From Dehalobacter sp. DCM (GTDB taxonomy: Bacteria; Bacillota; Desulfitobacteriia; Desulfitobacteriales; Syntrophobotulaceae), in contig NZ_CP092282.1 of the NCBI RefSeq assembly GCF_024972775.1, positions 3,747,525 to 3,811,524 on the forward strand: DNA of 64,000 nt, written 5' to 3'. The notes beneath the pieces were generated by a model. That model had not been told where the DNA came from, did no database searches, and saw only the letters and a program-made list of their open reading frames with translations. The position numbers were made by a program, and so were the translations under genes. Shown piece by piece: positions 3,652 to 28,387 of the stretch (its first letter is position 1; every line of letters starts with the position of its first letter).

Positions 3652-3871
3652 AATACCGTCTCCATGCTCTAAGTAATGGGTGTTAACTTATTATCTCTTG
3701 AAACGCTGAAATCCATTCGAAAACGAGCGCATGGCTGCCAATAACTCTTTTTAATTCCATTCCTCTTGATATTACCGCGTAAAATTCACCTATAAACAGA
3801 ATTGTTCCTGTTGTATCATCCGCAATGATGAACAGAAATGACCGGATGCAATGAAAACCGTAATGAAAGGA

Positions 3872-3904
3872 AATAGACCGCACCCGAAAGGATTACGGTC
3901 TATT
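3872..3904 (-). terminator. intrinsic terminator hairpin downstream of the ECF operon
   Basis: AATAGACCG / CGGTCTATT 9-bp stem with a GAAA-containing loop, followed on the minus strand by TTCCTTTCATT. It sits 68 nt after the stop of the 3973..4515 gene. Confidence 0.45.
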
Positions 3905-3972
3905 TTCTATACCATGACCGCACTGAAGCGGTTCAGGTCATTATTGTAAGTATCCGATTAAACTTAATAGCA

Positions 3973-4515
3973 CTAAGGTGTCACTGTTAATTTCACCGTA
4001 TTCTTACACCATTTGTTCGAGGGCTGCTCTTTTAAGATAGTCATCAGCGGGCCGCTGTTTCCTAAAGCCTCACCGTCCCGATTATATGCAAGTATACTGC
4101 CTTCCGCATTGATCATATCCGGTGTGTACTCGCAGGCATAATCATCTGAAGCGACAGCGGAAACCTTGGTGTACGCCTTCACTCCAGCTGCTTCCAGAAC
4201 TTTTGCCAGCGGGATTCCGGTGTATTCGTATTCCTGCTCCGATCCGTCTTTTTTCTTCATTGTCGCCTTCAAAGTGACTGCCGGAATGGCTCCCAATTCT
4301 TTTTCGGTCAGGGTCACTGTAGCGGATCCGTTAACAACATCGATGGTACAGGCGGGAACACTGCTTCCGGCAGTATCTGCCGGAGCCTGATTATTGTTCT
4401 GGGGCGCGTTGGCATTCGCATCCTGTTTAGCACCGGATGAACAGCCTGTCAGAACCAGTGCCAAAGAGAGCATAAGAACCGGTACAATAAGTAACTTTTT
4501 TGATACCTTGAACAT
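3973..4515 (-). CDS. lipoprotein with one sulfite-oxidase/YedY-like (Oxidored_molyb-like) beta-domain
   Basis: Signal peptide plus lipobox LTGC. The domain core (TGIPLAKVLEAAGVKAYTKVSAVASDDYACEYT...ILAYNRDGEALGNSGPLMTI...KW) resembles the G-[VI]-P-L / DGY / NGE-L / P-RL signature. Start chosen at ATG 4515 (MFKVSKK), 7 nt after GGAGGAG; the track start 4530 lies inside that SD. Confidence 0.6.
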   Translation of the reverse strand: MFKVSKKLLIVPVLMLSLALVLTGCSSGAKQDANANAPQNNNQAPADTAGSSVPACTIDVVNGSATVTLTEKELGAIPAVTLKATMKKKDGSEQEYEYTGIPLAKVLEAAGVKAYTKVSAVASDDYACEYTPDMINAEGSILAYNRDGEALGNSGPLMTILKEQPSNKWCKNTVKLTVTP

Positions 4516-4561
4516 TTCTTTCTCCTCCAAAAAATTATTTTTCTATTTTATTTGGACGAAA

Positions 4562-5386
4562 TCATCCAAAATAAAATGACAATAAGAATAAAATTACAAC
4601 AAGTATTCCCAGCAAAGCGATAACGGCATCTTTCCGGGTGAACAGCAGCGGGGTTAAAAATGTGCGTTTTGGATAAAGGCCAAATGCCCTGCCGTCCATG
4701 GACATACTCAGGGTATCTACCCGATGAATCGTCGTTGCCAGCAAGGGAACTAAAAGATAACGCAGCATGTTCATCAACCGTGTCCAAGAAAAGCCGTCAT
4801 AACGGACACCTTTTAAGCGGACAGCCAAGCGGATCTGACGGAAATCATCCTGGTATCCCGGAATAAAACGCAGTGCGGTAATCAGCATGAATCCCCAGCG
4901 ATAAGGAAGTCCGGCTTGAATCAAGCCCTGAACCAGCTTCATCGGATCGGTCGTGGCCACAAAAAGGAAACTGAGGCCGATGAGGTTTAGAAAACGCATT
5001 GCCAGCGCCAAGCCTTGCCCTAACCCCTCCGACCAGATCCCGAACTGCCATGGCCCAAGTCTGAACTGCCATAGCGGTGCCCCTTGCTGGCGGAAAAGAA
5101 TTTGGATAAGCAAGATAAACGCAGCAAAAAACAGAATGAACCGCAGTTTCCGGAGCCAATACCCCAAGCCTAAACCGGAAGAAATATACCCCATAAGCAA
5201 TATCCCAAGCAGTACAGCCCCTCGCGCCGCTTCGGCACTGATCAGCACCAGGCTGGCAAAAGCAAGCAAGAAACCTACTTTAACCAATGGATGAAGCTCC
5301 TGGATCCAGGAACTCCCCGGTATGAACTTCAGACCGGCCAAATCATCAAATTCCAATAGTTTATTAAAGAAAGACCGCGATTTCAT
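4562..5386 (-). CDS. ECF transporter transmembrane (T) component, EcfT/CbiQ family
   Basis: Polytopic membrane protein with the conserved C-terminal Arg/Gly motifs of EcfT. The start ATG 5386 overlaps the upstream ATPase stop (ATGA), indicating translational coupling. Confidence 0.8.
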   Translation of the reverse strand: MKSRSFFNKLLEFDDLAGLKFIPGSSWIQELHPLVKVGFLLAFASLVLISAEAARGAVLLGILLMGYISSGLGLGYWLRKLRFILFFAAFILLIQILFRQQGAPLWQFRLGPWQFGIWSEGLGQGLALAMRFLNLIGLSFLFVATTDPMKLVQGLIQAGLPYRWGFMLITALRFIPGYQDDFRQIRLAVRLKGVRYDGFSWTRLMNMLRYLLVPLLATTIHRVDTLSMSMDGRAFGLYPKRTFLTPLLFTRKDAVIALLGILVVILFLLSFYFG

Positions 5387-6921
5387 GGCAGGTAAGCCTC
5401 CAAGCCGTTCTCTTTCAACCATGCAAACACATCCCCCGGCGGCGCATCACAGCCAACCCGGCCTTGGTCGATAAACAGCAGGCGATGACAATAACGGGCA
5501 ACCACTTCCGGGTGATGACAGACCATCAGGACGGATCCGCCCCGCTGGCAATGGCTGTATAAGTGCGCCATTAAAAGATCGAGATGGGCGGCATCCTGAC
5601 CGGCCAGCGGCTCATCAAGCAAGAGCAAAGACGGTTCATAAGCTAATACCGACACGGCGCAAAGCCGTTTCTTTTCCCCCATACTAAGCAGGAAAGGCGA
5701 GTTGTCCCGAACCATCGCCAGAGAAAATTCCTCAATCAGTTTCTCCGTAGCCGGCTGAAAATTCATTGCAGGTTTAAGCATTTGGGCCGCCAATATGGCT
5801 TCTTGCCATACGGTCCGCTCTAAGATCTGGTGCCCGGGATTTTGCAGAACCATGCCGATATCCCGGACTCGGGACTGGATATCCGCTGCCGTTATATCCT
5901 GCCCGCGATAAAAAATCTTGCCTTGGTCCGGCCGGCAATATCCTAACAGGGACAAAAACAGCGTTGTTTTGCCGCTGCCATTTGCACCCATCACCGCCGT
6001 AATCTCACCCGGCGCCAGCTGAAACGTGATATCATCCAGAACAAGCCGGCCTCCCCGCCGTACGGTCATTCCCTGAACACACAGCAGTGGGTCGGCTGCT
6101 ATCGGGATATCTGTATGGTCGGCTTCTGTCTTTGCACCACGATTGCGGGCTTTGTCAAACTTCACTTTAGCCTGCAACGAATTGCTCAACGTGTTATCCA
6201 GCATGTCGCGATATACCGGGTTGACCTCCGAAGGGGTGCCGTCTGCCGCGATGCGCCCCTCATGGATAATCAGCATCCGATCAGCCATCGCGATAAACGG
6301 TTCTATCCGATGTTCGACCACGATCACGGTATAGCCGAATTGTTTAACTAACGTTATCAGACTGGCCGTCAAACCGGCTATGCCATCCGGATCAAGATTG
6401 GCCGTTGGTTCATCCAGCACCAAAATCCTGGGCTGCATGGCTAAGATGCAAGCCAGAGCGACGCGCTGTTTCTCTCCTCCCGATAAGCCGGCTACTTCGC
6501 GGTCCCGAAGGTGTTTGATATTCACAATACCGCATACGTCATCCAGCCTTGCTTGGATTTCAGCAGCCGCAAGGCGCAGGTTTTCCAAGCCAAAGGCGAC
6601 TTCCTGGCGCACTGTAAATGTACATAATTGGGCATCGGGGTCCTGCTGGACCAGCCCGGCTATCCCGGCGATTTTCTCCGGAGGGGTACTCTTGGTATTT
6701 TGGCCGTCAACCAGGACATCGCCTTCCATGTCTCCCGGCCAGCCGTAAGGAATAAACCCGCAAAGGGTATAAGCGAGGGTGGATTTGCCGCAGCCGCTAA
6801 GCCCGGTAACGAGGACAAAAGAACCCTCCGCAATGGTTAAATTTATGTTGCTTAGAGCCGGGTGGCTTTTTCCCGCATAGGTAAAGGAAAAATCCCGCAG
6901 TTCGATCATATTCTGTTTCAT
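5383..6921 (-). CDS. ECF transporter ATPase with fused tandem A1-A2 ABC domains
   Basis: Two complete ABC cassettes: GLSGCGKST + LSGGEKQRVALA + LVLDEPT, and GANGSGKTT + LSMGEKKRL + LLLDEP. There is a 4-nt ATGA overlap with the upstream gene. Confidence 0.85.
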   Translation of the reverse strand: MKQNMIELRDFSFTYAGKSHPALSNINLTIAEGSFVLVTGLSGCGKSTLAYTLCGFIPYGWPGDMEGDVLVDGQNTKSTPPEKIAGIAGLVQQDPDAQLCTFTVRQEVAFGLENLRLAAAEIQARLDDVCGIVNIKHLRDREVAGLSGGEKQRVALACILAMQPRILVLDEPTANLDPDGIAGLTASLITLVKQFGYTVIVVEHRIEPFIAMADRMLIIHEGRIAADGTPSEVNPVYRDMLDNTLSNSLQAKVKFDKARNRGAKTEADHTDIPIAADPLLCVQGMTVRRGGRLVLDDITFQLAPGEITAVMGANGSGKTTLFLSLLGYCRPDQGKIFYRGQDITAADIQSRVRDIGMVLQNPGHQILERTVWQEAILAAQMLKPAMNFQPATEKLIEEFSLAMVRDNSPFLLSMGEKKRLCAVSVLAYEPSLLLLDEPLAGQDAAHLDLLMAHLYSHCQRGGSVLMVCHHPEVVARYCHRLLFIDQGRVGCDAPPGDVFAWLKENGLEAYLP

Positions 6922-8009
6922 TGAAGGACAAACCGGCTTACTTTTTGGGCCCAGTAACCACCTTCGTAATTCGCGGCAATTATCCGCAGCGTGGTTTCTT
7001 TCCCTTTATTTTCTGTGAGCAGCATTTTGTCGTCGTTCATGACTTTAGCCAGATCAAACGTCACCTCATAGCCGTCGGTGGCAATAACCTTTAATTCTTT
7101 CGCCTCAGGCAAGGGCCGGGCATCCTTAAGAATAATCCGGACTGGCACACCGGTATAATCCTGCTCCGGTATATGGGTAACCTTGCCGTTGAGGGCTGCG
7201 CTGATTGTTACCTCCTCGCTGGCATACGCTTTTAATCCTGTCTTCATCGGCTGTTCGACTTTTCCTTCGATGCTCAGTACAACACCCTGCCACGGCAGCT
7301 GATAAATATTTTTATAGTAATATATTGCACCGCCTGTAAAAGACAAAAGAATGATAACCGCTAAACCAAGGGACATCCCAGTGAGGATTTTTTTCTTTGG
7401 GGAAACCGTTCGCTCTTTTTCTACCGCAAGCCGTCCCGGCCGCAGTGTCGTTAATAAGGCGAGGGATTGATGCGTCAAATAGCCACCGAAAATCGCCCCA
7501 GAAACTAGTGCAGCCAGGCAGATCAAACCGATATAGACAAAGGAGGCACCTGAAAAATACAGAATTTGAAAAACAATCACATTGGATACAGATGCTAAAG
7601 CACCGGCAATCACCAATGTGGGTAAATTAATCGTTTGTTTGCTTAAGAATATTATTATTTCAATAATTAACCCCTCAATAACGCAAACGAGGACGATGGG
7701 TAGTCCATGCGGGCTGCCGGTAAAAAACTCAACCAATCCTTTAATCAGACCGGCGGCGGCTGCGGCCCCGCGTTTACGGATCAGGCAGGGAACCATTAAC
7801 AACCAGAAAACATGGAGTCCGGCGATAAACTGCCCGGCTCCGAAAGGAACTCCGACCAGGCGATTCAAGATATTGCCGATATAACTGATATATGTACTCA
7901 GAACGCCGCCCAAGCCGCTGATCACAGCGATCATCAGGATATCCCTGCTTCTGCTCTTATAAGTTGTTTGCAGTGGGGGTTGCTCCACCTTATGCTGAGG
8001 CGTCTCCAT
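6918..8009 (-). CDS. ECF S-component-like polytopic membrane protein fused to a C-terminal extracytoplasmic YedY-like domain
   Basis: The N-terminal ~190 aa are hydrophobic with Gly-rich helices and sit in the S-component position immediately upstream of A and T. After a further TM the C-terminus (GVPVRIILKD...ATDGYEVTFDLAKV...GGYWAQKV) repeats the domain seen in the lipoproteins. The start overlaps the upstream stop (TAATG). Confidence 0.55.
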   Translation of the reverse strand: METPQHKVEQPPLQTTYKSRSRDILMIAVISGLGGVLSTYISYIGNILNRLVGVPFGAGQFIAGLHVFWLLMVPCLIRKRGAAAAAGLIKGLVEFFTGSPHGLPIVLVCVIEGLIIEIIIFLSKQTINLPTLVIAGALASVSNVIVFQILYFSGASFVYIGLICLAALVSGAIFGGYLTHQSLALLTTLRPGRLAVEKERTVSPKKKILTGMSLGLAVIILLSFTGGAIYYYKNIYQLPWQGVVLSIEGKVEQPMKTGLKAYASEEVTISAALNGKVTHIPEQDYTGVPVRIILKDARPLPEAKELKVIATDGYEVTFDLAKVMNDDKMLLTENKGKETTLRIIAANYEGGYWAQKVSRFVLQ

Positions 8010-9637
8010 TATTTAACCTCCATTCTTACGACATACCTTGCCCACCGGGCTCCGGCAGACGCGTAAGTATCCCAACCTTCACCCGGGGCGGACGTAGCGG
8101 AACAATCCGCATTATCATAAAGTCCATCGGCAGTTAAGAATACGATACGATAACCGTCCTGCCACTCGGGCGGCTGGCTGCCATTCCATTGGGTAGCCAG
8201 AATCATTTCCCCTTGTGCTTCCTGCCAACCGGCTTTTTCCGGATAGACATTACCGTAAGAATACGTCTGTTGGTAGCCGTCGACAGAGGTTATCACCAGT
8301 GTATTGTTTTCCGTCATACCGCCTACTTTTTCAAGAAGAGCTCGGATCGGGATCCCCGCATACGTTCCGGCGCCGCCGATATTGCCGTACTGGTTTTGGA
8401 AAGAAGCTTTCCCTTCAACCTCGGAAGCGGCAAATAAACCGTCGAAATCTTTGGCTTGCAACACCATGGAACCCGTGGCTCCTGTAACCGTTAGAATATC
8501 TCGCCTCGCCGGCGGATCAAAACGGTTGACTTTAATCGCCAGGGATGTGTTTTCGCTGTTAGCAGTGTTATTGGTGTTATTGGCGTTATCGGCGCTGACC
8601 AACAGCCAGTGATGGTAACCGCCTGCACCCGGCTCAGCATAGAGGTTGGCCCCGCCGCCCCCGCTGGTAATCAACGGCACGCCGTACTGACTGTACTGGT
8701 TAAACAGATGGATATGCCCGTTCATCACCGCCTCAATGTTTTGCTTGTGAAGTTGTACCATTGTTAGAAACGTTTTTGCAGCAGCCGCATCGGTCAGGGC
8801 ATGGTCTTCTTTTGCGCCGCGGGGATCCACAGCAGGGATATGCATAAAAATCATCACTTTTGATTGCTGGGACAGTATACCATTGAGGTAAGCAAATTGT
8901 TCCTGAGACACCGTACCCACGGAATCATCAATGAAAACCAGGGTTTTACCTCCCCATTCAAAATCGTAATGCGCCGGAGCCAGCAATTTCTCATAGAGGG
9001 AGGTTCCGCCGCCTTTGATGTCATGATTGCCCGGAACCGTATAAATCGGGCAAAATAATTGCTGTGCAGTTTGGAGAAAGGCCTTATATTCATCCTCCGT
9101 GCCGCTGGCGGTCATGTCGCCAAGATGAACAACAAAATCCGGCTGCACACGGTTGATCTGTTTGATTGCCCCTTGGAAAGATTCATTGTTGCCCTGGGTA
9201 TCGCCGATCACAGCAAAAGAACCTGCTGTTCCCCACGCCGCAGCGGGCTGAAGCAGGAGTTTCCCTTGCAAACCCTTGGGGATAGCGACCGTAATTTTTG
9301 TGGAAAGCGGCTGTTGGATTTGGACACCGGCTTGCGAAAGGTCGACTGTTCCATGTTCCCCTGTCAAGGAACCCTGCATCTGCTCAGCCGGAACATTGCT
9401 GATTTCAATCCGGCATTTTTGCCTGCTGCTAAGGTCAAACGCAATCACCGGTTGCCAAGCACGGTATACATAGACAGGTATTCCGTCGTCAGCAGGTAAT
9501 GCTGACTGCAGGACTGCCCCTTTGACTTGGGGCGCACGCTCAGAGAGTGAAGACTGGGTAGCTGTTGTACTGCAGCCGAATACAACAAGACAGCATAATC
9601 CAATCAACAACGTTGTTAACAATCTTACTTTTCTCAT
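8009..9637 (-). CDS. lipoprotein metallophosphoesterase (calcineurin-like) with C-terminal YedY-like domain
   Basis: Lipobox VVFGCS. Phosphoesterase motifs GDMTASG, GNHD and GHIH are present. C-terminus: GIPIRALLEKVGG...TSVDGYQQTYSY...ATQWNGSQPPE...GYRIVFL. Confidence 0.75.
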   Translation of the reverse strand: MRKVRLLTTLLIGLCCLVVFGCSTTATQSSLSERAPQVKGAVLQSALPADDGIPVYVYRAWQPVIAFDLSSRQKCRIEISNVPAEQMQGSLTGEHGTVDLSQAGVQIQQPLSTKITVAIPKGLQGKLLLQPAAAWGTAGSFAVIGDTQGNNESFQGAIKQINRVQPDFVVHLGDMTASGTEDEYKAFLQTAQQLFCPIYTVPGNHDIKGGGTSLYEKLLAPAHYDFEWGGKTLVFIDDSVGTVSQEQFAYLNGILSQQSKVMIFMHIPAVDPRGAKEDHALTDAAAAKTFLTMVQLHKQNIEAVMNGHIHLFNQYSQYGVPLITSGGGGANLYAEPGAGGYHHWLLVSADNANNTNNTANSENTSLAIKVNRFDPPARRDILTVTGATGSMVLQAKDFDGLFAASEVEGKASFQNQYGNIGGAGTYAGIPIRALLEKVGGMTENNTLVITSVDGYQQTYSYGNVYPEKAGWQEAQGEMILATQWNGSQPPEWQDGYRIVFLTADGLYDNADCSATSAPGEGWDTYASAGARWARYVVRMEVK

Positions 9638-9707
9638 GGGACTCTTCTTCCAAACTGTTTCTAATTGATTATTCTCACTATTTCCCCATACGCATTAATA
9701 TCCGTAC

Positions 9708-10766
9708 TCATTGCGATATTTTTGGCAGATTCAACAATTTCACCTGCTCGACTTGTTTCATGATGATTGGAGCCTTGTCTGCATTTTGGGCATCGATCAG
9801 AACCAAGGGCGCTTCGCCGTCGCCGAGAATACTGGTGTTTTTCTTATACGCCAGAATAATCTTTTCGTTATAAGACACATCTTGAGATGTATACTCCAGG
9901 ATTTTCCCGTCTTTGGTGATGACCTGAACCGTATAGCCGGAGCGTACAATATCGCGATTCACCGAATAATGCCCGTCGACTTTTTCTCCGCCGTCCACAA
10001 CCGCGACCATCATCCACAGACCCAAGCCCTCATAAACATCCGCCCCGCCATTACTCTTGGGGATTTCAATGGTCTGAACAGGATGCGGTGTTTCGGTGCA
10101 ACTGGCGGCACTTTCATAGGTCGCCCTGTCAATTGTTTTCTCTTCATAACCACTAAGTTTTATCATCCAATCAGCCACGCCTGCTTTGATATTAATGGTA
10201 TCCACCATTTTCACCCAGAGATGGCCGTCACTGATCGGATTGTCCTGGCCAACATAACATAAACGCGGCATCCCTTCACCCACCTCCGGGTCGCTGCAGG
10301 TGATACCCACGATGGCATCTAATTGCCGAACGGTGCCGTTTTTACCGTCTTCCTGGTAGGTCATGATATTCCCGGTAGCTTGCATATAGTCCAAGGTCAT
10401 GGTGTAGCCGTCGGAAGCAACAAATTCAAACGCATCCGATGGTGCCAATTCGATTCCGGCTGCTTTAAAGACGTCGGATAGTTTCGGTCCGCTGATTTCA
10501 GCCGGGCCGACCAACGCACCCGTTGATTTTTTGAATGTTGCAGTTCCTTTAAACTGAGTCAGGCTCTTCAGATCCACCGTCTTCGCGTTGCCGTTGGTGT
10601 CAACGATTTTTATGGTTGTACTTTGCGCTGTCTGGCCCTGATCGGAATTGCCTGCTGTTGCTGTTTGGTCCGTGCCTTTGCTGCACCCAGCGAAAGCAAG
10701 CACCATAATCAGAAGACCTGTTAACATAAACCGGATCCAGCCCCTGAAATTCTTTTCTTTTTTCAT
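9708..10766 (-). CDS. lipoprotein with two tandem YedY-like beta-domains
   Basis: Signal peptide plus lipobox AFAGC. Two repeats: GPKLSDVFKAAGIEL...ASDGYTMTLDY and a second ...SGYEEKTIDRATYESA... copy. Confidence 0.6.
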   Translation of the reverse strand: MKKEKNFRGWIRFMLTGLLIMVLAFAGCSKGTDQTATAGNSDQGQTAQSTTIKIVDTNGNAKTVDLKSLTQFKGTATFKKSTGALVGPAEISGPKLSDVFKAAGIELAPSDAFEFVASDGYTMTLDYMQATGNIMTYQEDGKNGTVRQLDAIVGITCSDPEVGEGMPRLCYVGQDNPISDGHLWVKMVDTINIKAGVADWMIKLSGYEEKTIDRATYESAASCTETPHPVQTIEIPKSNGGADVYEGLGLWMMVAVVDGGEKVDGHYSVNRDIVRSGYTVQVITKDGKILEYTSQDVSYNEKIILAYKKNTSILGDGEAPLVLIDAQNADKAPIIMKQVEQVKLLNLPKISQ

Positions 10767-11041
10767 TTTTCTCCCCCTTAGTTATGTAAATATATCAATC
10801 CTTCTGCAAGGATTGTTCATTAGCATCATGGTTCAAACTACTATCAATCACTCAGATTACTACAATTAATAAACTGATCAATACAACAACAACCTGATCA
10901 ATCCTACTTCAATTATTTTGTGATTAAACAAACTTATTTAATTCTAATAATAACAAATTCTATTATGTTTTCATACCTTTTTCTACCACTGGTTTAAGGA
11001 AAGTTGGTATAATGAAGAGGATTGGAGGTTGACTTGAATTC

Positions 11042-11560
11042 ATGCATATCTTTCTTACCGGTGAAATCCAAGTAGGAAAAAGCACAGTAATAACAAAGAC
11101 ACTTTCGCTGCTAAACATAACCCCAGGAGGGTTCAAAACTTACTTTGGGCCTGACAGAGGGGCAAAAAGCAGGCTGCTCTATATGAATGCCGCGGACAAA
11201 CCACCCGTTTATCATGAAGGAAATGCCATAGCCCGTATGGTTCGGGAAGAAAAACCGGTCATTCTGTTGGAGAAATTTGACGTTTACGGCGCGGAATTAC
11301 TCCGTTCGTCCATGTCCAATGCCCGTTTGATTTTAATGGATGAATGCGGAAATCTGGAGAAGTCTGCCCATATCTTTCAACGTGAAATATTTCGGTGCCT
11401 GGACGGGGATATTCCGGTTTTCGGTGTCGTTAAACAGGACAGTTATGGCTGGACAGACGGTATAAGAAACCATCCCAAGGTCTGTCTGTATACCGTGACA
11501 AAAGAGAATCGTGACTCGCTGCCTTTATTGCTTGCTGAGCAATTTGCGAATTCTATTTAA
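11042..11560 (+). CDS. P-loop NTPase, THEP1-like
   Basis: MHIFLTGEIQVGKSTV Walker A at the extreme N-terminus and LILMDECGNLE Walker B; the 172-aa size is typical. Confidence 0.6.
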   Translation: MHIFLTGEIQVGKSTVITKTLSLLNITPGGFKTYFGPDRGAKSRLLYMNAADKPPVYHEGNAIARMVREEKPVILLEKFDVYGAELLRSSMSNARLILMDECGNLEKSAHIFQREIFRCLDGDIPVFGVVKQDSYGWTDGIRNHPKVCLYTVTKENRDSLPLLLAEQFANSI

Positions 11561-11603
11561 TGTAATGATAAAGCAAATGATTTGGAGCAAACGTTTTTTA
11601 AAT

Positions 11604-13532
11604 ATGACGGATAAAAAAACAAACATAACCCTCGTCATGCTTGTTTATCTGGCAGGCGTTTTTATCGGCGCGCTTGATACCGGAATTGTTACACCCGCCA
11701 GAACGATTATTCAAAATAACCTGTTTGTTGAAGAAAAACTGGGGATTTGGCTGATCACACTCTATACGCTGGCCTATGCCGCAAGCATTCCACTTATGGG
11801 CAAGTTGGCGGATCTATTCGGCCGTAAGGTTGTTTACCTCACCAGTATCTTCATATTCGGCTTGGGTTCCTTATTTTGCGGTTTGGCCCAGGGGTTGGGC
11901 AGTTTTACCGTATTGCTCTTAGCACGCGTTATCCAGGCTATCGGCGGCGGGGGAATTATTCCGCTGGCGACGGCCGAATTTGGGACCTCCATTCCGCTGG
12001 AAAAACGCGGCTTAGCGCTGGGACTTGTCGGCGGGGTTTACGGAATCGCCAACATCCTGGGGGCTTCAGCCGGCAGTGCGATTCTCAGCAGCTTCGGCCC
12101 GGACAACTGGCCATTAATTTTTTATATTAACTTGCCGATTACGGCTTTGATCCTGATTATCGGGGTTATCTGCCTGCCCAATACCAAGCCTGCGGGAGCA
12201 AAAAACATCGATATCTTGGGGATTTCGATTTTAACACTCATGATTCTGGCACTTCTATATGGTTTAAAGAATATCGATTTTCTGCATTTCACAACTTCGG
12301 CGCAACGGTTTTCGGTCTATCCGTTTTTGACCGTTTTTATTTTACTCTTGCCTCTGTTTATTTGGACGGAAAAGAAAGCCGCGGATCCGATACTTAATAT
12401 TTCTTATTTTTCGAATAGGAAAATTGCCATCACCTTTACGCTGGCCTTTATTACCGGCTTTTTGATGATGGGAATGATCTTTGTACCGCAATTTTCCGAA
12501 AATGCACTGAAGATGGCTCCGGGCACCGGCGGTTACTTTGTTATTATTCTTGGCTTATTTGCAGGCATTGGCGCTCCCGTCTCCGGTAAATTGATCGATC
12601 ATTATGGTCCGAGGGTAATTCTTGCCTGCGGGTTTGTACTCTCCATTGCCGGATCTCTTTTTTTAGTTTTCGCCACGGCGAATCACCCCAGTCTGTGGCG
12701 TGTCATTCTCTGTCTGGTTCTCATGGGTTTAGGAACAGGCTTCACAATGGGAACACCATTAAATTATATGATGCTGGAAAATACCACAAAAAACGATGCC
12801 AACTCCGCTCTCGCCGCTCTCTCGCTGGTGCGTACCATCGGCACAACCATCGCTCCCGCAATTATGGTCGCCTTTCTCGCGCAAGCCGGCTTGAACGTTC
12901 AAGCCAACGTCAGAGACCTGCTGCCTCGGGAAATTACTTTACCACCGTTGCCCTATGCTACGGAGTTAACAACAACCATTGACCGTTTGAGAAGTGACCC
13001 CTCAACCAAACGGTATGTCGCTACGGTCTACATGCCGGACCTGTCTTTCCTGCAAACAATTGATATGGATATGAGCAGTGACAGTCCAATTGCTATTCCC
13101 GCCGACGTGTTAGATCGGCTGAAAGCTTCGGACGTAACCACCATCACTGCCAACTGTAAACGTGTTGCCCGCAGCCTGTTCTTCCAAACAACGCCCGAAC
13201 TGGTTGATCGGATTGAGCACGGGATGCAGATTGGCATTGAGGAATTGAATATAAGCATTGCGGAAATCAATCAAAGCCCCACAACGGAATTGACAATTTC
13301 CGTCAGGAACACGCTGCAGGACACCATCGACAAAATGATTGTCCTGCGGCAAGCCATTCCCGGTGCATTTAACGCGGCGGGCGATAATTATTTGTCGTTG
13401 ATAGACCAAAACAAAGGAAGGATTGAACAGGAGTATCAAAGGTTAATGATGATTGGATTTAAGCGTCTCTACCTTTCGGTTTCCATTGCTTCCTTATTAG
13501 GGCTGATTTTTCTGGCCTTTTATCGGAATTAG
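11604..13532 (+). CDS. MFS transporter (DHA2-like, 14 TMS) with ~200-aa extramembrane insertion before the last TM
   Basis: MFS signature (GKLADLFGRKVVYLTSIFIFGLGSLFCGLAQ) plus a hydrophilic ~200-residue block near the C-terminus. The ATG at 11604 (MTDKKTN) is the likely start; the track ORF 11511 overlaps the upstream gene. Confidence 0.8.
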   Translation: MTDKKTNITLVMLVYLAGVFIGALDTGIVTPARTIIQNNLFVEEKLGIWLITLYTLAYAASIPLMGKLADLFGRKVVYLTSIFIFGLGSLFCGLAQGLGSFTVLLLARVIQAIGGGGIIPLATAEFGTSIPLEKRGLALGLVGGVYGIANILGASAGSAILSSFGPDNWPLIFYINLPITALILIIGVICLPNTKPAGAKNIDILGISILTLMILALLYGLKNIDFLHFTTSAQRFSVYPFLTVFILLLPLFIWTEKKAADPILNISYFSNRKIAITFTLAFITGFLMMGMIFVPQFSENALKMAPGTGGYFVIILGLFAGIGAPVSGKLIDHYGPRVILACGFVLSIAGSLFLVFATANHPSLWRVILCLVLMGLGTGFTMGTPLNYMMLENTTKNDANSALAALSLVRTIGTTIAPAIMVAFLAQAGLNVQANVRDLLPREITLPPLPYATELTTTIDRLRSDPSTKRYVATVYMPDLSFLQTIDMDMSSDSPIAIPADVLDRLKASDVTTITANCKRVARSLFFQTTPELVDRIEHGMQIGIEELNISIAEINQSPTTELTISVRNTLQDTIDKMIVLRQAIPGAFNAAGDNYLSLIDQNKGRIEQEYQRLMMIGFKRLYLSVSIASLLGLIFLAFYRN

Positions 13533-13553: not shown

Positions 13554-14432
13554 TTATTTCAGGGTGCACATGAATGAATTCTCAGTCCAACGCCTGTACA
13601 GGCAATTAAAGCAGCTTCGAGCGTTATCGTTTATATCTACTGTTTCTTCCGGCACATCCGCTTTATACTTCGGGCAGGCTTCTATACTTGCCCGATCATC
13701 TCCAAACTGTCTCATTTCATTTTTAGCCAGGGTCACCCATTCATTTTGGGAATTAAGTGCTACCAGAAGGACCGGCTTGCCATCATGTAAAACCGGTTTG
13801 GCTTTCCATTTGATTTGTACGTTTTTATCAGGATCTAACGACTGCATATCTATGGTACAAACAGCAAAAATAAGTTCTTCCTGCAGGAGCTGCTCTACGG
13901 TGTAGCTCTCCCCTTTGATTAAGGTCTCAATCCCGCCTTTGACTTCGCCGTCATTGCCGTTTAAGCGTAAGCCCACACCGGCTAAGGCCCCAATGATGCC
14001 TTCACCACTGCCGCCTTTCTCCTCAAGAAACACACCGGTCTCACTGGCAATCTTGTACGCCTGATCTTTGCTTAACACTTCCCATTTAGCCCGAAAACCG
14101 AATTCTATTAGAGCGCGCGGGTTTTTTATGGTTTCCAGAGCGGCGATACAGATGCCGGGGTCGGAGTCAGGAACGCTTTCAGCTCCAAGATAATCAGCCA
14201 GAGTTCCTTTCAGCTGGTCAAAGTATCGATCTCCAATTTCCGCATCAAAACACATCGAGCTATTATGAGACGTATAGGGTACATCCGGATGGAGAATAAG
14301 CTGGTGCCTAGAAATAATTCCGCATTTTCCCCAGCCATTTTGTTCGATAATCCCCGTCATTTCGGAGGCAATCGAACCGGTGCCTTTGGATTCCAGATTA
14401 TCGGTATCGTCAATACATATAAGCAATTTCAT
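13554..14432 (-). CDS. hypothetical protein (N-terminal ICIDDTD..KGTG motif faintly reminiscent of the TiaS/DUF1743 kinase-like domain)
   Basis: 292-aa soluble protein with a Gly-rich middle (GGSGEGIIGALAGVGLRLNG). The family assignment is a guess from the N-terminal motif only. Confidence 0.4.
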   Translation of the reverse strand: MKLLICIDDTDNLESKGTGSIASEMTGIIEQNGWGKCGIISRHQLILHPDVPYTSHNSSMCFDAEIGDRYFDQLKGTLADYLGAESVPDSDPGICIAALETIKNPRALIEFGFRAKWEVLSKDQAYKIASETGVFLEEKGGSGEGIIGALAGVGLRLNGNDGEVKGGIETLIKGESYTVEQLLQEELIFAVCTIDMQSLDPDKNVQIKWKAKPVLHDGKPVLLVALNSQNEWVTLAKNEMRQFGDDRASIEACPKYKADVPEETVDINDNARSCFNCLYRRWTENSFMCTLK

Positions 14433-14442
14433 AATTATCCCC

Positions 14443-15627
14443 TTATTTTCCCGTTCCGCCCGCCAGGTTGGAACTACCTTTAATGTCCTTATATTCCCTG
14501 CCCTCCAAAATCTTGGTTACCTGGGCATCAGACAGTTCATAATGAAAATAGTTTTTATAGAAGTCTTTGGTTTCCGTGCAGATATCAATATCGGCAAACA
14601 AATCAGGATATATGGTTTTAGCTATCCACAGCATGGCTAGCGGGCTTTCAATCGAAGTAGGATGCCCCCACCGAGAAACACCCAGTGGCATCAGGTAAAT
14701 GTGCTTTTCTTTATAGGCTTTGAGATTATGGAGCTGGGTGCTTTTATTGATATAATCCAACACGTCGCCGCCGTTGATGAGAATATACTCGGGGTTGGCT
14801 TCCAGCAATTCCTCAAGGGCAATATAGTGTTTATCAATGCTTAGTTGGGTAGTTTTAGCTCCTTGCGGACCCTGAAAAGCAATGTTCTTTACACCACACT
14901 TGTCTAAAATATCTGCGGAAAGGGTATTAACCGCATCGGTTCTCAGCAGCTCGTTAATGGCATGATAGACTGTTTTCTTCTCACTGTCGGGTATATCTTT
15001 GATCCGGGAATTCACCAGTTCAACCACTGACTGATAATACTTATTGTAGTCCGCTGCTTCTTTCTCCCTGTCGGCAATAGTGCCAAGCATTTCCATAGTC
15101 TTCTTCTGCTGCTCGATATTGTCATAGGCAATAGTAACCACCGGTATACCCAGGTTCGTCAGTTTCTTAACAGTCGCTTCGTCCGTAGTGACTTCAGGAT
15201 TTGCGATCAACACCTCCGGCCTAGGCTGTTTAACAACTTCTTCAATATTCAGGACATTATTGCCTTTGACAATTCTGGCTTTGGAAATTTGGGGATATAT
15301 CTGACAGAATAAATAATCTCTGGTGTTTCCATCAGGAATCGTTACGATCTTATCAACATCGCCATATATAGCGAAGATATGCGTAGCGACTGCAAAAAGA
15401 CTGCCGATATAAGCTGGGTTCTGCTTCACTTTCACTTTGTTGCCATAATAGTCCGTAACAATGATATATCCTTGTTCCGGCGTCAGATCATTCGATTTAG
15501 CGGCTCCTTCCACAGGTGCTTTTGATTGAGAACATCCGGTCAATGAGGCTGATACCAAAAACAAAAAGGCGAGTAATAGTGCTGCAATTTTTCTATTTAT
15601 ACGTTTCTTGTTTGTGTTCGTGCTCAT
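14443..15627 (-). CDS. ABC transporter substrate-binding lipoprotein, class III (Fe-siderophore/haem/cobalamin type)
   Basis: Lipobox LTGCSQ and a FecB/BtuF-like fold pattern. The start at MSTNTN (15627) follows AGGAGG. Confidence 0.8.
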   Translation of the reverse strand: MSTNTNKKRINRKIAALLLAFLFLVSASLTGCSQSKAPVEGAAKSNDLTPEQGYIIVTDYYGNKVKVKQNPAYIGSLFAVATHIFAIYGDVDKIVTIPDGNTRDYLFCQIYPQISKARIVKGNNVLNIEEVVKQPRPEVLIANPEVTTDEATVKKLTNLGIPVVTIAYDNIEQQKKTMEMLGTIADREKEAADYNKYYQSVVELVNSRIKDIPDSEKKTVYHAINELLRTDAVNTLSADILDKCGVKNIAFQGPQGAKTTQLSIDKHYIALEELLEANPEYILINGGDVLDYINKSTQLHNLKAYKEKHIYLMPLGVSRWGHPTSIESPLAMLWIAKTIYPDLFADIDICTETKDFYKNYFHYELSDAQVTKILEGREYKDIKGSSNLAGGTGK

Positions 15628-16444
15628 TCCATTCCCCTCCTGCGCAGAAATCGATAGGAACAACAAAATTAAGTACCTTGTCCCCTTCACTATCTCTAAA
15701 ATTTTTAGTCCTAATTTTAAAAATCTTAGCCATGTTTTCCTGGTTTAACACTTCCGACGGAATGCCTAACGCTTCAAATGCTCCATTTTCCATCAGCGCA
15801 ACCCTGGTTGGGAGGCCTAAGCTTTCAAAAAAATAAGCATGATTGGGGAAGTGGGTAGCCATAATCACCGAAATGTTTTTTTCTTTGGTGATCTTAGCGA
15901 TATATCTGATCACATTGAGTTCATGGCGAAAGTCCAGATGGGAAGTCGGCTCATCAAAAATAATCAGCTCGGCATTTTGGGCAATAGCCCTGGCAATTTT
16001 CACAAGCTGGGCTTCTCCGCCGCTCAATTTGGTATAAACACGGTCTCTGAAATTATACATACCGACGCTGTCCAGCGCGTTTTTTGCAATCGCAAGATCC
16101 TCCGGACCAGGAGATGAAAACATGCCTGTATAGGCAGTCCTGCCCATTAAAACGATTTCCAGCACGGTATAGGGAAACGTCCGGTCGCTCTTCTGGGATA
16201 CGTAAGCAATCTTTTGCGCTTTCTGGGGCGGGGACATCGCTGTAAGGTTCCGGCCGTCAATGGTTATGTTTCCTTCCTCCGGTTTGTTCAGCCCAAGTAT
16301 ACAGTCGAGCATGGTTGTTTTACCACAGCCGTTTGGACCAAAGACACAAAAAACCTCACCTTGTTCCACAGTGAAATTAATTCCGTTCAGAATTTTCTTA
16401 TCATGATAGCGAAAGTGAAGATTTTCAACCTGTAAAGTATCCAT
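15593..16444 (-). CDS. ABC transporter ATP-binding protein (FecE/BtuD type)
   Basis: Walker A GPNGCGKTT, signature LSGGEAQLV and Walker B IIFDEPTSHLD. Confidence 0.85.
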   Translation of the reverse strand: MDTLQVENLHFRYHDKKILNGINFTVEQGEVFCVFGPNGCGKTTMLDCILGLNKPEEGNITIDGRNLTAMSPPQKAQKIAYVSQKSDRTFPYTVLEIVLMGRTAYTGMFSSPGPEDLAIAKNALDSVGMYNFRDRVYTKLSGGEAQLVKIARAIAQNAELIIFDEPTSHLDFRHELNVIRYIAKITKEKNISVIMATHFPNHAYFFESLGLPTRVALMENGAFEALGIPSEVLNQENMAKIFKIRTKNFRDSEGDKVLNFVVPIDFCAGGEWNEHEHKQETYK

Positions 16445-17466
16445 TACCAGCTGCCGCCTCCCTTAGTCCTTTTTAGTATAAGGATAAAAAACGGCCCACC
16501 GATCAAAGCGGTCAATACACCCAGAGGGATCTCAGTGCTTACTATGCTGCGGGCTATTAGATCGACAATTAATAGGAAACAGCCGCCTGCCGAAATACAG
16601 ACAGGCAGTAAAACGCGGTTATCATTACCTACCAGCATTCTAACGATATGGGGAATAATCAATCCGACCCAGCCAATGGTACCGCTGACGCAGACTGCTC
16701 CGGCCGTGGCAATTGCTGTGCAAATAATGATAATTGCCCGGCATATTCCCGTATTCACACCCAAAGTACTTGCTTCTTTATCCCCTAAAGAAAGGACATT
16801 GATCCTCCAGCGAATCAGGACAATTCCTGCCACCCCGATGATAATCGGTATAAGGGCAAAGGACATATCGCTAAAATTAGCCCTCGCCAGGCTGCCCATG
16901 AGCCAAAAAGTAATAGTAGGCAGCTGCTCCATCGGATCGGCCACGAACTTCATAAAAGATATTAAGGCGCTAAAGATCGCCGATATGACCACGCCGCCCA
17001 AAACAAGGGTCACGGTTGGGGCAGAATCATAGATTTTTCCTGCAAAGTAACTCAAAAGCACTGCCAGGATTCCAAAGCAGAAGGCTAAAACATAGGTCAT
17101 ATAAAAGTTATGAAAGATGATAATTCCCAGGCAGGCACCAAAACCCGAACCAGCACTGACCCCGAGCATACCGGAGTCAACCAGCGGGTTCCGAAACATT
17201 CCCTGCAGAGCGCCCCCGCTGATGGAGAGTGCTCCGCCGACGATAAAAGCCAACAACGCCCTAGGCAGCCTGATATCATATATTAATGAATATTCTATAG
17301 CGCGGTCTAAATCTGAATTCCAATTCTGCCCTTGAATTAATATCGACAGTATATCGCTGAAACTCAGATCATACCTGCCGACAAACAGAGAAAACAGAAT
17401 TAAAACCACCGGCAGGACGAAACAAGCGATAGCCAGAATTCTTTTCTGATAGTTCTTACTTAACAT
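16444..17466 (-). CDS. FecCD-family ABC permease
   Basis: About 340-aa polytopic core typical of iron-chelate/B12 permeases. The track ORF extends to 17619; M52 is the probable start. Confidence 0.8.
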   Translation of the reverse strand: MLSKNYQKRILAIACFVLPVVLILFSLFVGRYDLSFSDILSILIQGQNWNSDLDRAIEYSLIYDIRLPRALLAFIVGGALSISGGALQGMFRNPLVDSGMLGVSAGSGFGACLGIIIFHNFYMTYVLAFCFGILAVLLSYFAGKIYDSAPTVTLVLGGVVISAIFSALISFMKFVADPMEQLPTITFWLMGSLARANFSDMSFALIPIIIGVAGIVLIRWRINVLSLGDKEASTLGVNTGICRAIIIICTAIATAGAVCVSGTIGWVGLIIPHIVRMLVGNDNRVLLPVCISAGGCFLLIVDLIARSIVSTEIPLGVLTALIGGPFFILILKRTKGGGSW

Positions 17467-18052
17467 TTTTGTTCCGATGATTGATATAGAGAATAATTGC
17501 CGCTGCAATAATGACAATAGCACCAACGCCAACAATCCACCACACCAATGGATTATTGCCTGCCGGCGCAGAACTGCCGCTTGCTTGGGGGGAAGCACCA
17601 GCTTGTGTAGATGGGACATAGCCCTTTGTGGAGAAAGTATATGTTACTTCTTTCCCCAGCTTCTCACCGCTTTTTGATGTAACATCCGGACTTATAGTAA
17701 TGGTATATTGTTCAGCATCCTTGAGCTCAATAGGTTTAATTACAATGTCATTCCGTTTATCCCTTTCAAGCTGGTCGTCATACGTGATAACTTCAATGGT
17801 AACCGGCTGACCTTTAGAATCAGTCATGGAGAAACAATTTTTATTGTTTTCTGCTACCGTTATATTCGCAATGTTTTTGCTAAAAACAAATTTAATTTCC
17901 TTATTTAGCGGCACATCCTTTTCCCCGTCTGTTATTGTAGCTGAGGAAATCTCTAACGGTGTTTTCTCTTCACCTGCAGCCAGAATCGCCAAAGGAGACA
18001 TAACCAATAATAAGGTCATAATAAAAAAAATAACGATTGAATTTTTGTTCAT
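17456..18052 (-). CDS. secreted Ig-like (SbsA/Big-type) domain protein with C-terminal TM anchor
   Basis: Signal peptide, a beta-rich ~110-aa domain, a Ser/Ala/Gly/Pro linker and a terminal TM plus basic tail. Co-oriented with the ABC importer. Confidence 0.5.
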   Translation of the reverse strand: MNKNSIVIFFIMTLLLVMSPLAILAAGEEKTPLEISSATITDGEKDVPLNKEIKFVFSKNIANITVAENNKNCFSMTDSKGQPVTIEVITYDDQLERDKRNDIVIKPIELKDAEQYTITISPDVTSKSGEKLGKEVTYTFSTKGYVPSTQAGASPQASGSSAPAGNNPLVWWIVGVGAIVIIAAAIILYINHRNKNVK

Positions 18053-24638: not shown

Positions 24639-24734
24639 ATATTAGTCTGTGAAACCCAGCGCTGGAGGTTTCCAACAGTTATCTATCAATAATGAAGAAT
24701 GATGAAAACATTATCAGAAAGGAAGGTCGAATCA

Positions 24735-28171: not shown

Positions 28172-28387
28172 GACTAAAAAAATTAACGCTTAACGTTTAA
28201 TCAGGATGGCCCGTCAATGTTTTTGCCGGGCCGTCCTAACGCTGATATCCTTATTGGGTACATTATTTTTAATATGGAATTAACGATCGTTATCCTTTAT
28301 AATTAATCATCATCAACGAAATGTTTATATCCTGACCACCCAGCCCGGAATTGTGTTTTTGCCTGTTATTTGGGAGGTGTTTTGTAT

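Follow-up and report, generated by a model that had tools for sequence, protein, structure and literature searches.

The closest described relative of the transporter considered here is YkoEDC, the group I energy-coupling factor (ECF) transporter of Bacillus subtilis for thiamine and hydroxymethylpyrimidine (HMP), which is encoded in the order S component, fused A1A2 ATPase, T component and is controlled by a thiamine pyrophosphate (TPP) riboswitch. Molybdate and tungstate uptake is represented by ModABC, TupABC, WtpABC and MOT1, which are type I ABC transporters dependent on a substrate-binding protein (SBP) or members of the major facilitator superfamily (MFS), and riboswitches for the molybdenum or tungsten cofactor (Moco/Tuco) classically govern the mod, tup and wtp transporters (Regulski et al. 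2008). A third reference point is PruR, a degenerate sulfite oxidase (SUOX) fold without the molybdenum-ligating Cys, in which free pterins are held between a Tyr and a Trp (PMC11194511). In a 64-kb stretch of the genome of Dehalobacter sp. DCM (contig NZ_CP092282.1, positions 3,747,525 to 3,811,524; below, the window, in whose numbering its features are placed), six co-directional open reading frames (ORFs) on the minus strand, g1 to g6, run from 10766 down to 3973 and encode an ECF module of the YkoE type together with secreted proteins that carry a repeated, cut-down SUOX-like domain. We propose, at a probability of roughly 0.45, that this operon is a dedicated salvage importer for a molybdopterin-type pterin cofactor.

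The repeated domain measures about 115-170 aa and occurs in five copies in four proteins of the operon, two in g1 and one each in g2, g3 and g6. A hidden Markov model (HMM) built from the S-fused domain matched only four ORFs in the 64-kb window, all of them within the operon. The 352-aa lipoprotein g1 (9708-10766), an ORF with no Pfam match, gave two partial matches to this model (full E 1.4e-6). Its copy A (about aa 50-195, nt 10182-10619) keeps a DGY motif and a Trp, and its copy B (about aa 196-352, nt 9711-10181) is degenerate, with KDGK in place of DGY; BLAST of g1 against g6 aligned 1-142 at E 5.6e-10 and 211-331 at E 0.009. The small lipoprotein g6 is a 185-aa ORF (3973-4530), or about 180 aa from its likely start (3973-4515), with a single domain at nt ~3976-4368 that matched the model at E 4e-8; the S-fused domain was used for the model instead of g6 because a homologue search with g6 gave four matches only. 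Pfam Oxidored_molyb (PF00174) matched g2 (422-488, E 0.0017), g3 and g6 (E 2.6e-6) weakly, above the cutoff in the latter two. These matches were partial, covering profile positions 60-161 and 14-130 of 169, and no Mo-co_dimer match was obtained in the domain. The original prediction, made from the sequence alone, had described four sulfite-oxidase/YedY-like domains. The fold assignment and the recurrence in four proteins stand, and the count of copies rises to five because g1 holds two.

A profile of the g3 family matched SorT and SorA at 1e-6 to 2e-4, and the HMMER alignment spanned SorA 129-222 only, a stretch that lies after Cys104 and before Tyr236, with a weak match over 70-91. The SorA segments that bear Cys104, Arg55/His57 and Tyr236 have no counterpart in the domain. 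The suspicion that the catalytic Cys would be absent was borne out: Cys is missing altogether from the g3 domain, and the S-fused and metallophosphoesterase-fused domains of the family have none at a conserved position. The domain shares its fold, profile matches and PF00174 matches with the SUOX molybdoenzymes (SorA, SoxC, YedY/MsrP, sulfite oxidase, nitrate reductase), but it has no dimerisation domain, and its carriers have Sec/lipoprotein rather than Tat leaders. A genuine secreted SUOX enzyme was rejected on account of the missing Cys and active-site segments.

Foldseek searches with the model of g3 returned the Moco domains of SorA, SoxC, nitrate reductase and YedY, as well as the PruR structures 7kou, 7kos, 7rkb (with neopterin bound) and 7kom at E 1.6e-4 to 7.5e-4 and TMt 0.58-0.62 over a 147-aa target. 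By sequence, PruR was not detected in a profile search of the PDB (E > 10). In A. tumefaciens PruR the pterin contacts are N102, Y104 and W160, and PruR also has a PW motif (PMC11194511). Candidate equivalents in the present family are the near-universal DGY motif (in the non-fused copies, D in 203/203, G in 192/203 and Y in 175/203) and the one invariant Trp of the S-fused copies, the two families giving no alignment at sequence level. On the predicted structures, the repeated domain is a truncated SUOX fold without the molybdenum-binding Cys whose size-matched structural relatives are the PruR proteins. PruR of Agrobacterium, Vibrio and Klebsiella (7KOU, 7KOM, 7RKB) is likewise a stand-alone, extracytoplasmic degenerate SUOX fold of similar size, with the Cys hairpin truncated in both cases. 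The two differ in context, as PruR is a protein of Proteobacteria that signals to the diguanylate cyclase/phosphodiesterase DcpA, whereas the domain described here is attached to or clustered with a transporter and belongs to anaerobic Bacillota and Archaea. A DcpA-like gene (GGDEF/EAL with a periplasmic domain) was not found in the operon runs, where the neighbours were ECF genes, phosphoesterases and genes of molybdenum and tungsten (Mo/W) metabolism.

The genes g3, g4 and g5 are a dedicated group I ECF module, as the original prediction had read them. The 363-aa g3 (6918-8009) begins with a six-helix S component of the YkoE family (PF09819, aa 20-189, E 4.6e-20). A basic loop then precedes a seventh transmembrane (TM) helix (aa 206-235, nt 7305-7394), which leads into the SUOX-like domain (aa 244-362, nt 6924-7280); this extra helix would place the domain outside the cell, beside the lipoproteins. 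The AlphaFold2 (AF2) model of g3 (pLDDT 86.7) showed the six-helix S component followed by the beta-rich domain, with a pTM of 0.68 that leaves their mutual orientation uncertain. In the PDB its best Foldseek match was YkoE (5edl, E 1e-7, TMt 0.77), with RibU and 4huq_S also listed, and the g3-family profile matched 5edl at E 4e-17. The 512-aa g4 (5383-6921) is a fused A1A2 ATPase comparable to YkoD, with two ABC_tran stretches (E 3.5e-56) and matches to TIGR04520 and TIGR04521 (ECF_ATPase_1 and ECF_ATPase_2) at about 1e-94. The T component, g5, is an EcfT of the CbiQ family (CbiQ E 5.8e-24) in a 286-aa ORF (4562-5422, likely 4562-5386). The S-AA-T order was kept in essentially all related loci long enough to show it.

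Set against YkoEDC, the module has the same S family and the same gene order at about 24% identity, but g3 adds the seventh helix and the extracytoplasmic domain, the operon has no YkoF, and a secreted phosphodiesterase and domain-bearing lipoproteins are added. The binding site also differs. In YkoE, thiamine is bound by Tyr46, Trp49, Glu77, Gln95 and Asp131, of which Glu77 and Gln95 contact the pyrimidine ring (PMC5037267). In an HMMER alignment with 5edl and a 90-sequence family alignment, the stacking Trp49 was replaced by an invariant His (His66 in g3) and Tyr46 by Ala, Glu77 was retained as the invariant E94, and Gln95 was Gln in most members and E112 in g3. An invariant His in place of the stacking Trp, together with the retained Glu/Gln, fits a different heterocyclic ligand. 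The S component also has invariant Gly-rich loops (PFGAGQ and TGSTHG) and invariant His and Lys.

The second accessory component is g2 (8009-9637), a 542-aa lipoprotein metallophosphoesterase (Metallophos E 2.7e-14) that is 100% identical to a Dehalobacter sp. DCM protein (family Desulfitobacteriaceae). It consists of an N-terminal beta-sandwich (aa 37-131) and the metallophosphoesterase core (aa 140-348, nt 8594-9220), which an Asn-rich linker joins to a C-terminal SUOX-like domain (aa 367-541, nt 8012-8539) that is large and highly conserved. Its dimetal motifs GD(146)xQ, GD(174), GNHD(203-206), H266 and GH(308)xH(310) were invariant or at least 90% conserved in 33 homologues, and motif I has Gln where most relatives carry His. 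The AF2 model (pLDDT 91.6) had the diesterases GpdQ and Rv0805 as its closest solved structures. With all five dimetal-ligating motifs of the class III/GpdQ-like metallophosphodiesterases kept, g2 is a putative phosphodiesterase. A g2-type core with an intact active site was present in 39 of 89 mapped loci, archaea included, and a secreted metallophosphoesterase flanked the fusion of S component and domain in at least 57% of loci; these g2-type counts were made with the catalytic core as the only query, since the C-terminal domain inflated whole-protein phmmer labels. Enzymes of the purple acid phosphatase type replace the g2 type in at least seven Syntrophomonadaceae-type loci. A secreted protein of 430-540 aa with Pur_ac_phosph_N and Metallophos domains was observed in L015, L028, L029, L031, L046, L054 and L059, one or two genes upstream of the pair formed by 'dom186' and the S component; these loci lack the g2-type enzyme, and the protein takes the equivalent place.

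A search of 185,579 species genomes found the fusion of S component and domain at 308 loci. Among 1.84 billion cluster representatives it gave 96 matches at E<=1e-30, and it was full-length in hundreds of protein clusters, a family of modest size and broad range. Its hosts are strict anaerobes, in the bacteria Syntrophomonadaceae, Pelotomaculum, Dethiobacteria, Desulfosporosinus, Anoxynatronum, Thermovorax and Thermotogota, and in the archaea Asgard lineages, Thermoplasmata and Methanobacteriota. Some family proteins (P0187-P0202) are about 450-460 aa long with two profile stretches, suggesting S fusions with an extra domain copy. Further domain copies nearly always flanked the fusion in the 89 loci mapped, which were mostly contigs of metagenome-assembled genomes (MAGs) with ORFs called by a simple procedure of our own; there was usually at least one upstream protein with one to four copies, the smallest of these being lipoproteins of 150 aa and the largest S-layer-anchored proteins of 1000-2100 aa. 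The exact six-gene order of the window recurred at 64-70% identity in L009 (Desulfosporosinus), L090 and L091, which also have g6 orthologues of 169-185 aa in the same position.

A link to Mo/W cofactors comes from the regulation of these relatives. In two distant MAGs, Rfam placed the Moco/Tuco riboswitch RF01055 immediately ahead of the operon, and a covariance model built from these two aptamers (R1) located 41 copies in the collected loci; its E-values are rough, from a quick calibration, and the matches were confirmed by Rfam, all copies in the 12 loci also scanned passing the gathering score. The riboswitch preceded the gene cluster in 25 of 81 non-redundant loci, co-oriented with it and in most cases no more than 300 nt from the first gene. 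A further 22 loci end upstream of the cluster, and about 14 of the other 34 loci without a riboswitch are archaeal; since many contigs end early, these counts are lower bounds. All 41 copies are without the P3 stem, and the P3-less class tracks tungsten cofactor metabolism (Regulski et al. 2008). An intrinsic terminator comes after the aptamer in L045 and L058, and its 5' arm can alternatively pair with the 3' strand of P1, an arrangement that indicates a ligand-OFF platform, as expected for acquisition genes. A 2013 survey of riboswitch regulons lists only "molybdenum & tungsten transporters" and Moco biosynthesis for this motif. No TPP (RF00059), tetrahydrofolate (THF), pre-queuosine-1 (preQ1) or cobalamin riboswitch was found by Rfam in the window or in 17 related loci, where RF01055 and tRNAs were the only matches.

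The neighbourhoods of the related loci point in the same direction. In L043/L027 a single riboswitch-led operon encodes a TupA-like SBP, a permease, an ATPase, MOT1, the phosphodiesterase and the S, AA and T components. In L065, ModABC-like genes and DUF364 are followed by a riboswitch, S-AA-T, and then a second riboswitch and a surface protein of 1761 aa in which PKD and Shr-like haemoprotein-interacting (HID) domains are combined with SUOX-like ones; ModABC-like genes also stand alongside the operon in L062 and L038. MOT1 lies directly upstream of the six genes in L091 (a 65% relative), Fer4_11/NrfD upstream in L090, and an aldehyde ferredoxin oxidoreductase (AFOR), a radical-SAM protein and MoeA upstream in L009. 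A census of 132 further co-directional neighbours counted PBP_like_2 (8), SLH (8), purple-acid-phosphatase-type phosphoesterases (8) and SBP_bac_11 (7), with MobB, MOT1 and DUF364/DUF4213 in a few loci each. The system shares a riboswitch regulon, and often an operon or an adjoining one, with ModABC, TupABC, WtpABC and MOT1, from which it differs in using an ECF S component and accessory domains of a pterin-binding rather than an oxyanion-binding fold. From these genomic data, it appears to belong to a W/Mo-cofactor acquisition regulon, to which the window locus is tied by orthology and neighbourhood.

Giant surface proteins of 1400-2100 aa, in which the truncated SUOX-like domain stands together with PKD, Fn3-associated, CHB_HEX_C and Shr-like HID domains, were observed immediately downstream of the ECF operon, with their own P3-less riboswitch, at L065 14241-19985 and also in L038, L062, L027 and L043. 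Pairs of MotA_ExbB and DUF2149 occur among SLH-anchored domain proteins in L004 (3467-4415), L028, L054 and L061, which hints at an energised surface-capture step in some Gram-positive lineages. Genes with TrmO_N, DUF389, DUF364/DUF4213, HAD and APH/RIO1-like domains recur beside S-AA-T. A conserved cytoplasmic kinase 3' of EcfT, as a scheme of dephosphorylation, import and rephosphorylation would involve, has weak support, the gene of about 230 aa in this place being heterogeneous (APH/RIO1-like, HAD, DUF364/DUF4213 or unrelated). In L009, an RVT_1 ORF that is probably a group II intron lies at 2002-2946, between the AFOR/ferredoxin genes and the radical-SAM/MoeA genes.

Several considerations favour a pterin as the ligand. 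Only one fold is known to hold the pterin of Moco, or free pterins, and it is that of the accessory domain; the S component is akin to a heterocycle-binding vitamin S component but has a changed stacking residue. A secreted phosphodiesterase or phosphatase recurs, a kind of partner also found where other phosphorylated or dinucleotide cofactors are salvaged. Two oxyanion transporters are already present in some operons (L043/L027), and large receptor-like surface proteins suit a scarce, labile and possibly protein-bound ligand. The most likely candidates are Moco, Tuco, the metal-free molybdopterin (MPT), or a dinucleotide or precursor form. We infer this ligand, the relay between domains, the substrate of the phosphodiesterase and the direction of transport from the comparisons given above. 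In the proposed mechanism, the lipoprotein-anchored truncated SUOX domains (two in g1, one in g6 and one in g2) would capture and shield the labile pterin, and the GpdQ/Rv0805-like enzyme g2 would trim phosphodiester- or pyrophosphate-linked forms, such as the molybdopterin guanine and cytosine dinucleotides (MGD and MCD), or remove a phosphate. The ligand would then be passed to the domain copy held by the seventh TM helix at the outer face of the S component, and the YkoE-like S component would bind it and topple against EcfT, with the fused A1A2 ATPase as the motor. In the cytoplasm, insertases of the MoeA type, such as the MoeA encoded near the operon in the Desulfosporosinus relative, could load or reload tungsten or molybdenum. 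The scheme is alike in logic to the Gram-positive haem relays (Isd NEAT, Shr), in which multiple surface copies of one ligand domain feed an importer, and to vitamin-salvage trimming enzymes such as NadN for NAD, a secreted phosphoesterase ahead of uptake. These are analogies from general knowledge rather than homologies, as folds and ligands are unrelated. Some related loci encode Shr-like HID domains.

A number of observations weigh against a pterin importer. Neither the window nor the leader of its operon contains an Rfam family at gathering score, and none was found even at E<=10 in the leader, in agreement with the earlier report of no riboswitch there. R1 with default filters had no match in the window, and the close relatives L090 and L091 gave no riboswitch in a filters-off R1 search, L009 being also without one. 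Because the window and its closest relatives have no riboswitch, the Mo/W link of the window locus is one of orthology and neighbourhood only. Where the riboswitch is present, such control is equally expected for a transporter of metal oxyanions. Free Moco and MPT are very labile, and no supply of them in the environment is documented. MoeA is kept, and de novo synthesis probably too, in carriers such as the Desulfosporosinus locus. The phosphoesterase and the extra lipoproteins are absent in the minimal loci L007, L045 and L058 and are therefore not essential to transport. Lastly, metallophosphoesterases bind tungstate and molybdate as phosphate analogues.

The main alternative is an unusual high-affinity importer of a metal, whether tungstate, molybdate or the sulfidic or complexed W/Mo species of anoxic habitats. 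Binding or release of the oxyanion would then fall to the SUOX-like domains and perhaps also to the dimetal phosphoesterase. Regulation and gene neighbourhood suit this explanation as well as they suit pterin import, since Moco/Tuco riboswitches classically sit on mod, tup and wtp, the OFF logic fits, and the operon sits among Mo/W transport genes. A FecCD-type importer adjoins the operon in the window, L001 and L009, and its binding protein in the window matches the molybdate/tungstate binder MolA (3psa). Metal-ion ECF transporters (Cbi, Nik) exist, and the Gly-rich loops with the invariant His and Lys of the S component could bind an anion. However, no known ECF system has an oxyanion substrate, the SUOX fold binds pterin and not free molybdate, and ModA/TupA and Mop folds are absent from the accessory proteins. 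In L043/L027 the system would be the third oxyanion transporter in one operon, and a conserved phosphodiesterase with intact catalytic motifs and giant receptor-like proteins are hard to explain for a free anion. We regard metal import as unlikely, though it is the main competitor.

Transport in the opposite direction is improbable. Here the module would deliver cytoplasmic Moco, Tuco or MPT outwards to Sec-exported SUOX-like lipoproteins that serve as extracytoplasmic redox or sensing proteins, with the S-fused domain as a possible first acceptor. The Sec/lipoprotein leaders, which are not Tat leaders, imply that a cofactor would need to be loaded outside the cell, and some Moco riboswitches precede genes of Moco-using proteins. 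ECF-type modules can serve export, as in Listeria, where RibU/EetB/FmnA supplies flavin adenine dinucleotide for extracytosolic flavinylation and offers an analogy. An enzymatic role is unlikely for domains without the molybdenum-ligand Cys and the SorA Arg55/Tyr236 segments. The inspected riboswitch platforms are ligand-OFF, the wrong sign for a consumer of the cofactor, and co-transcription with metal uptake systems points to acquisition.

Import of thiamine/HMP, or of another micronutrient such as folate, queuosine precursors, haem, a corrinoid or another pterin-like compound, with a secondary Mo/W association, is the least probable reading: the YkoE-family S component, the ykoEDC-like order, the JGI label 'ABC-type thiamin/hydroxymethylpyrimidine transport system permease' for homologues, the Shr-like haem-receptor domains and Peripla_BP_2/FecCD systems nearby and the binding of non-Moco pterins by PruR itself (PMC11194511) speak for it, but Rfam found no riboswitch other than RF01055 in a scan of the window and 17 related loci, the invariant His replaces Trp49, and the neighbours are dominated by PBP_like_2, SBP_bac_11, MOT1, MobB, MoeA and AFOR. 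The thiamine/HMP annotation agrees neither with the binding residues nor with the type of riboswitch. Haem or corrinoid uptake, prompted by Shr-like_HID, Peripla_BP_2/FecCD and MotA_ExbB/DUF2149, is not supported, the sole riboswitch found being Moco/Tuco and the binding protein of the window being at least as MolA-like as BtuF-like or siderophore-binder-like.

As to the layout of the operon, the genes are tightly packed, with TAATG at 8009 and ATGA at 6918-6921 and 5383-5386. The start of g5 was placed at ATG 5386 and not at the first ATG, 5422, because of the ATGA overlap with the stop of g4 and a GGAGG 10 nt upstream. For g6, judged from the sequence, ATG 4515 with an upstream GGAGGAG ribosome-binding site (RBS) is the most likely start of an ORF open from TTG 4530. 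All three lipoprotein candidates (g1, g2, g6) have a hydrophobic leader ending in Cys, with FAGC at the end of the g1 leader and the lipobox LTGC in g6. The 111-nt 3' region at 3865-3975 on the minus strand folds at -33.8 kcal/mol (z = -3.96), and none of 200 shuffles was as stable. It contains a terminator hairpin at about 3868-3908 (AAAUAGACCG...CGGUCUAUUU, followed by CCUUUC) and, ahead of it, a second hairpin at 3911-3938; a simple terminator scan missed the former because a long loop, itself containing an inner stem, separates the arms of its outer stem. The six co-directional genes, the overlapping junctions and the terminal hairpin of the original prediction therefore agree with the coordinates, the junction reads and the fold.

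The leader and promoter region on the minus strand (10767-11041) is common to a divergent NTPase_1 gene. In addition to promoter-like sites found by a promoter scan (10985-10947), it contains two ATTGATCAG boxes with a palindromic TGATCA core (10894-10902 and 10874-10882), exactly 20 nt apart, and a GC-poor 8-bp hairpin (10796-10815) directly upstream of the g1 RBS. From their sequence, the boxes and the hairpin may be an operator or attenuator in place of the riboswitch of other lineages. Alignment of the leaders of the window, L090, L091 and L009 showed no clearly conserved operator, and the boxes and hairpin were not obviously kept; promoter-like TTGACA/TATAAT elements were common to the three relatives only.

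The divergent gene (11042-11560, plus strand) encodes a THEP1-like NTPase_1 (PF03266), and runs at its 3' end into the ORF of a DHA2-type MFS efflux gene (11511-13532). NTPase_1 was also observed near the orthologous operon of L090, the 70% relative, at 4789-5316 on the minus strand. A second transporter operon (13554-18052, minus strand), 3 kb away from the ECF operon, encodes a Big_5 lipoprotein, a FecCD permease, an ABC ATPase and a Peripla_BP_2 protein, as well as a 292-aa protein resembling TiaS-TCKD/methanogenesis marker 11. MolA (HI_1472, 3psa), the molybdate/tungstate binder of a type II importer, was among the best solved relatives of the Peripla_BP_2 protein (E 1e-15). The FecCD-type operon is contiguous with the ECF operon in Desulfosporosinus (L009 13274-17534), and in Desulfuribacillus (L001) a Peripla_BP_2/ABC pair precedes the ECF operon. 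Together, the two operons may form a W/Mo acquisition island.

The window also contains, on the plus strand, a gene for a molybdopterin oxidoreductase of the bis-MGD type near a sigma-54 activator gene (24699-26972 and 28370-30139), which shows that Mo/W-pterin enzymes are used by the organism. Among the top families detected elsewhere in the window, none was for Moco biosynthesis. Five Dehalobacter genomes were reported to have a molybdopterin biosynthesis cluster but no MoaD/MoaE (MPT synthase), although they express Mo/W formate dehydrogenases (PMC4751268). Those species were absent from the top ECF matches listed.

Beyond the fifth domain copy, the original prediction had not included the seventh TM helix or the Mo/W-cofactor link, the last of which emerges from comparative data only. 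Its suggestion of ligand capture and extracellular phosphoester hydrolysis has been strengthened, short of proof, by the co-occurrence of domain and phosphoesterase with the transporter across phyla and by the PruR relatives. Its claim of novelty holds for the searchable literature, as full-text searches found no description of this system or of any prokaryotic importer of Moco, MPT or pterins. Moco is usually seen as a cofactor that each cell must make. The only Moco uptake biology found in the literature concerns C. elegans, and according to a June 2026 review how pterins cross bacterial membranes is not known. The parts of the system are of known kinds (ECF module, SUOX fold, metallophosphoesterase) and the substrate class is probably new. 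It is possible, if still short of probable, that the operon represents the first prokaryotic uptake system for the Mo/W cofactor or its pterin moiety, composed of an ECF importer, a surface relay of cut-down Moco-binding domains and a trimming phosphodiesterase.

In current annotation the family goes under wrong names, thiamine/HMP permease or "molybdopterin-dependent oxidoreductase". Were the substrate a metal, the system would be the first ECF transporter of the oxyanion type and would give the truncated SUOX fold a new role. If the pterin reading is true, strict anaerobes such as syntrophs, Dehalobacter, Asgard archaea and Thermoplasmata could take up Moco, Tuco or MPT shed by neighbouring cells and so cross-feed, as with B12. 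The system is a concrete candidate, open to testing, for the salvage and exchange of a cofactor within anaerobic consortia. Syntrophic fatty-acid oxidisers, dehalogenating cultures and Asgard archaea are examples, with formate dehydrogenases and aldehyde oxidoreductases that depend on W/Mo-pterin.

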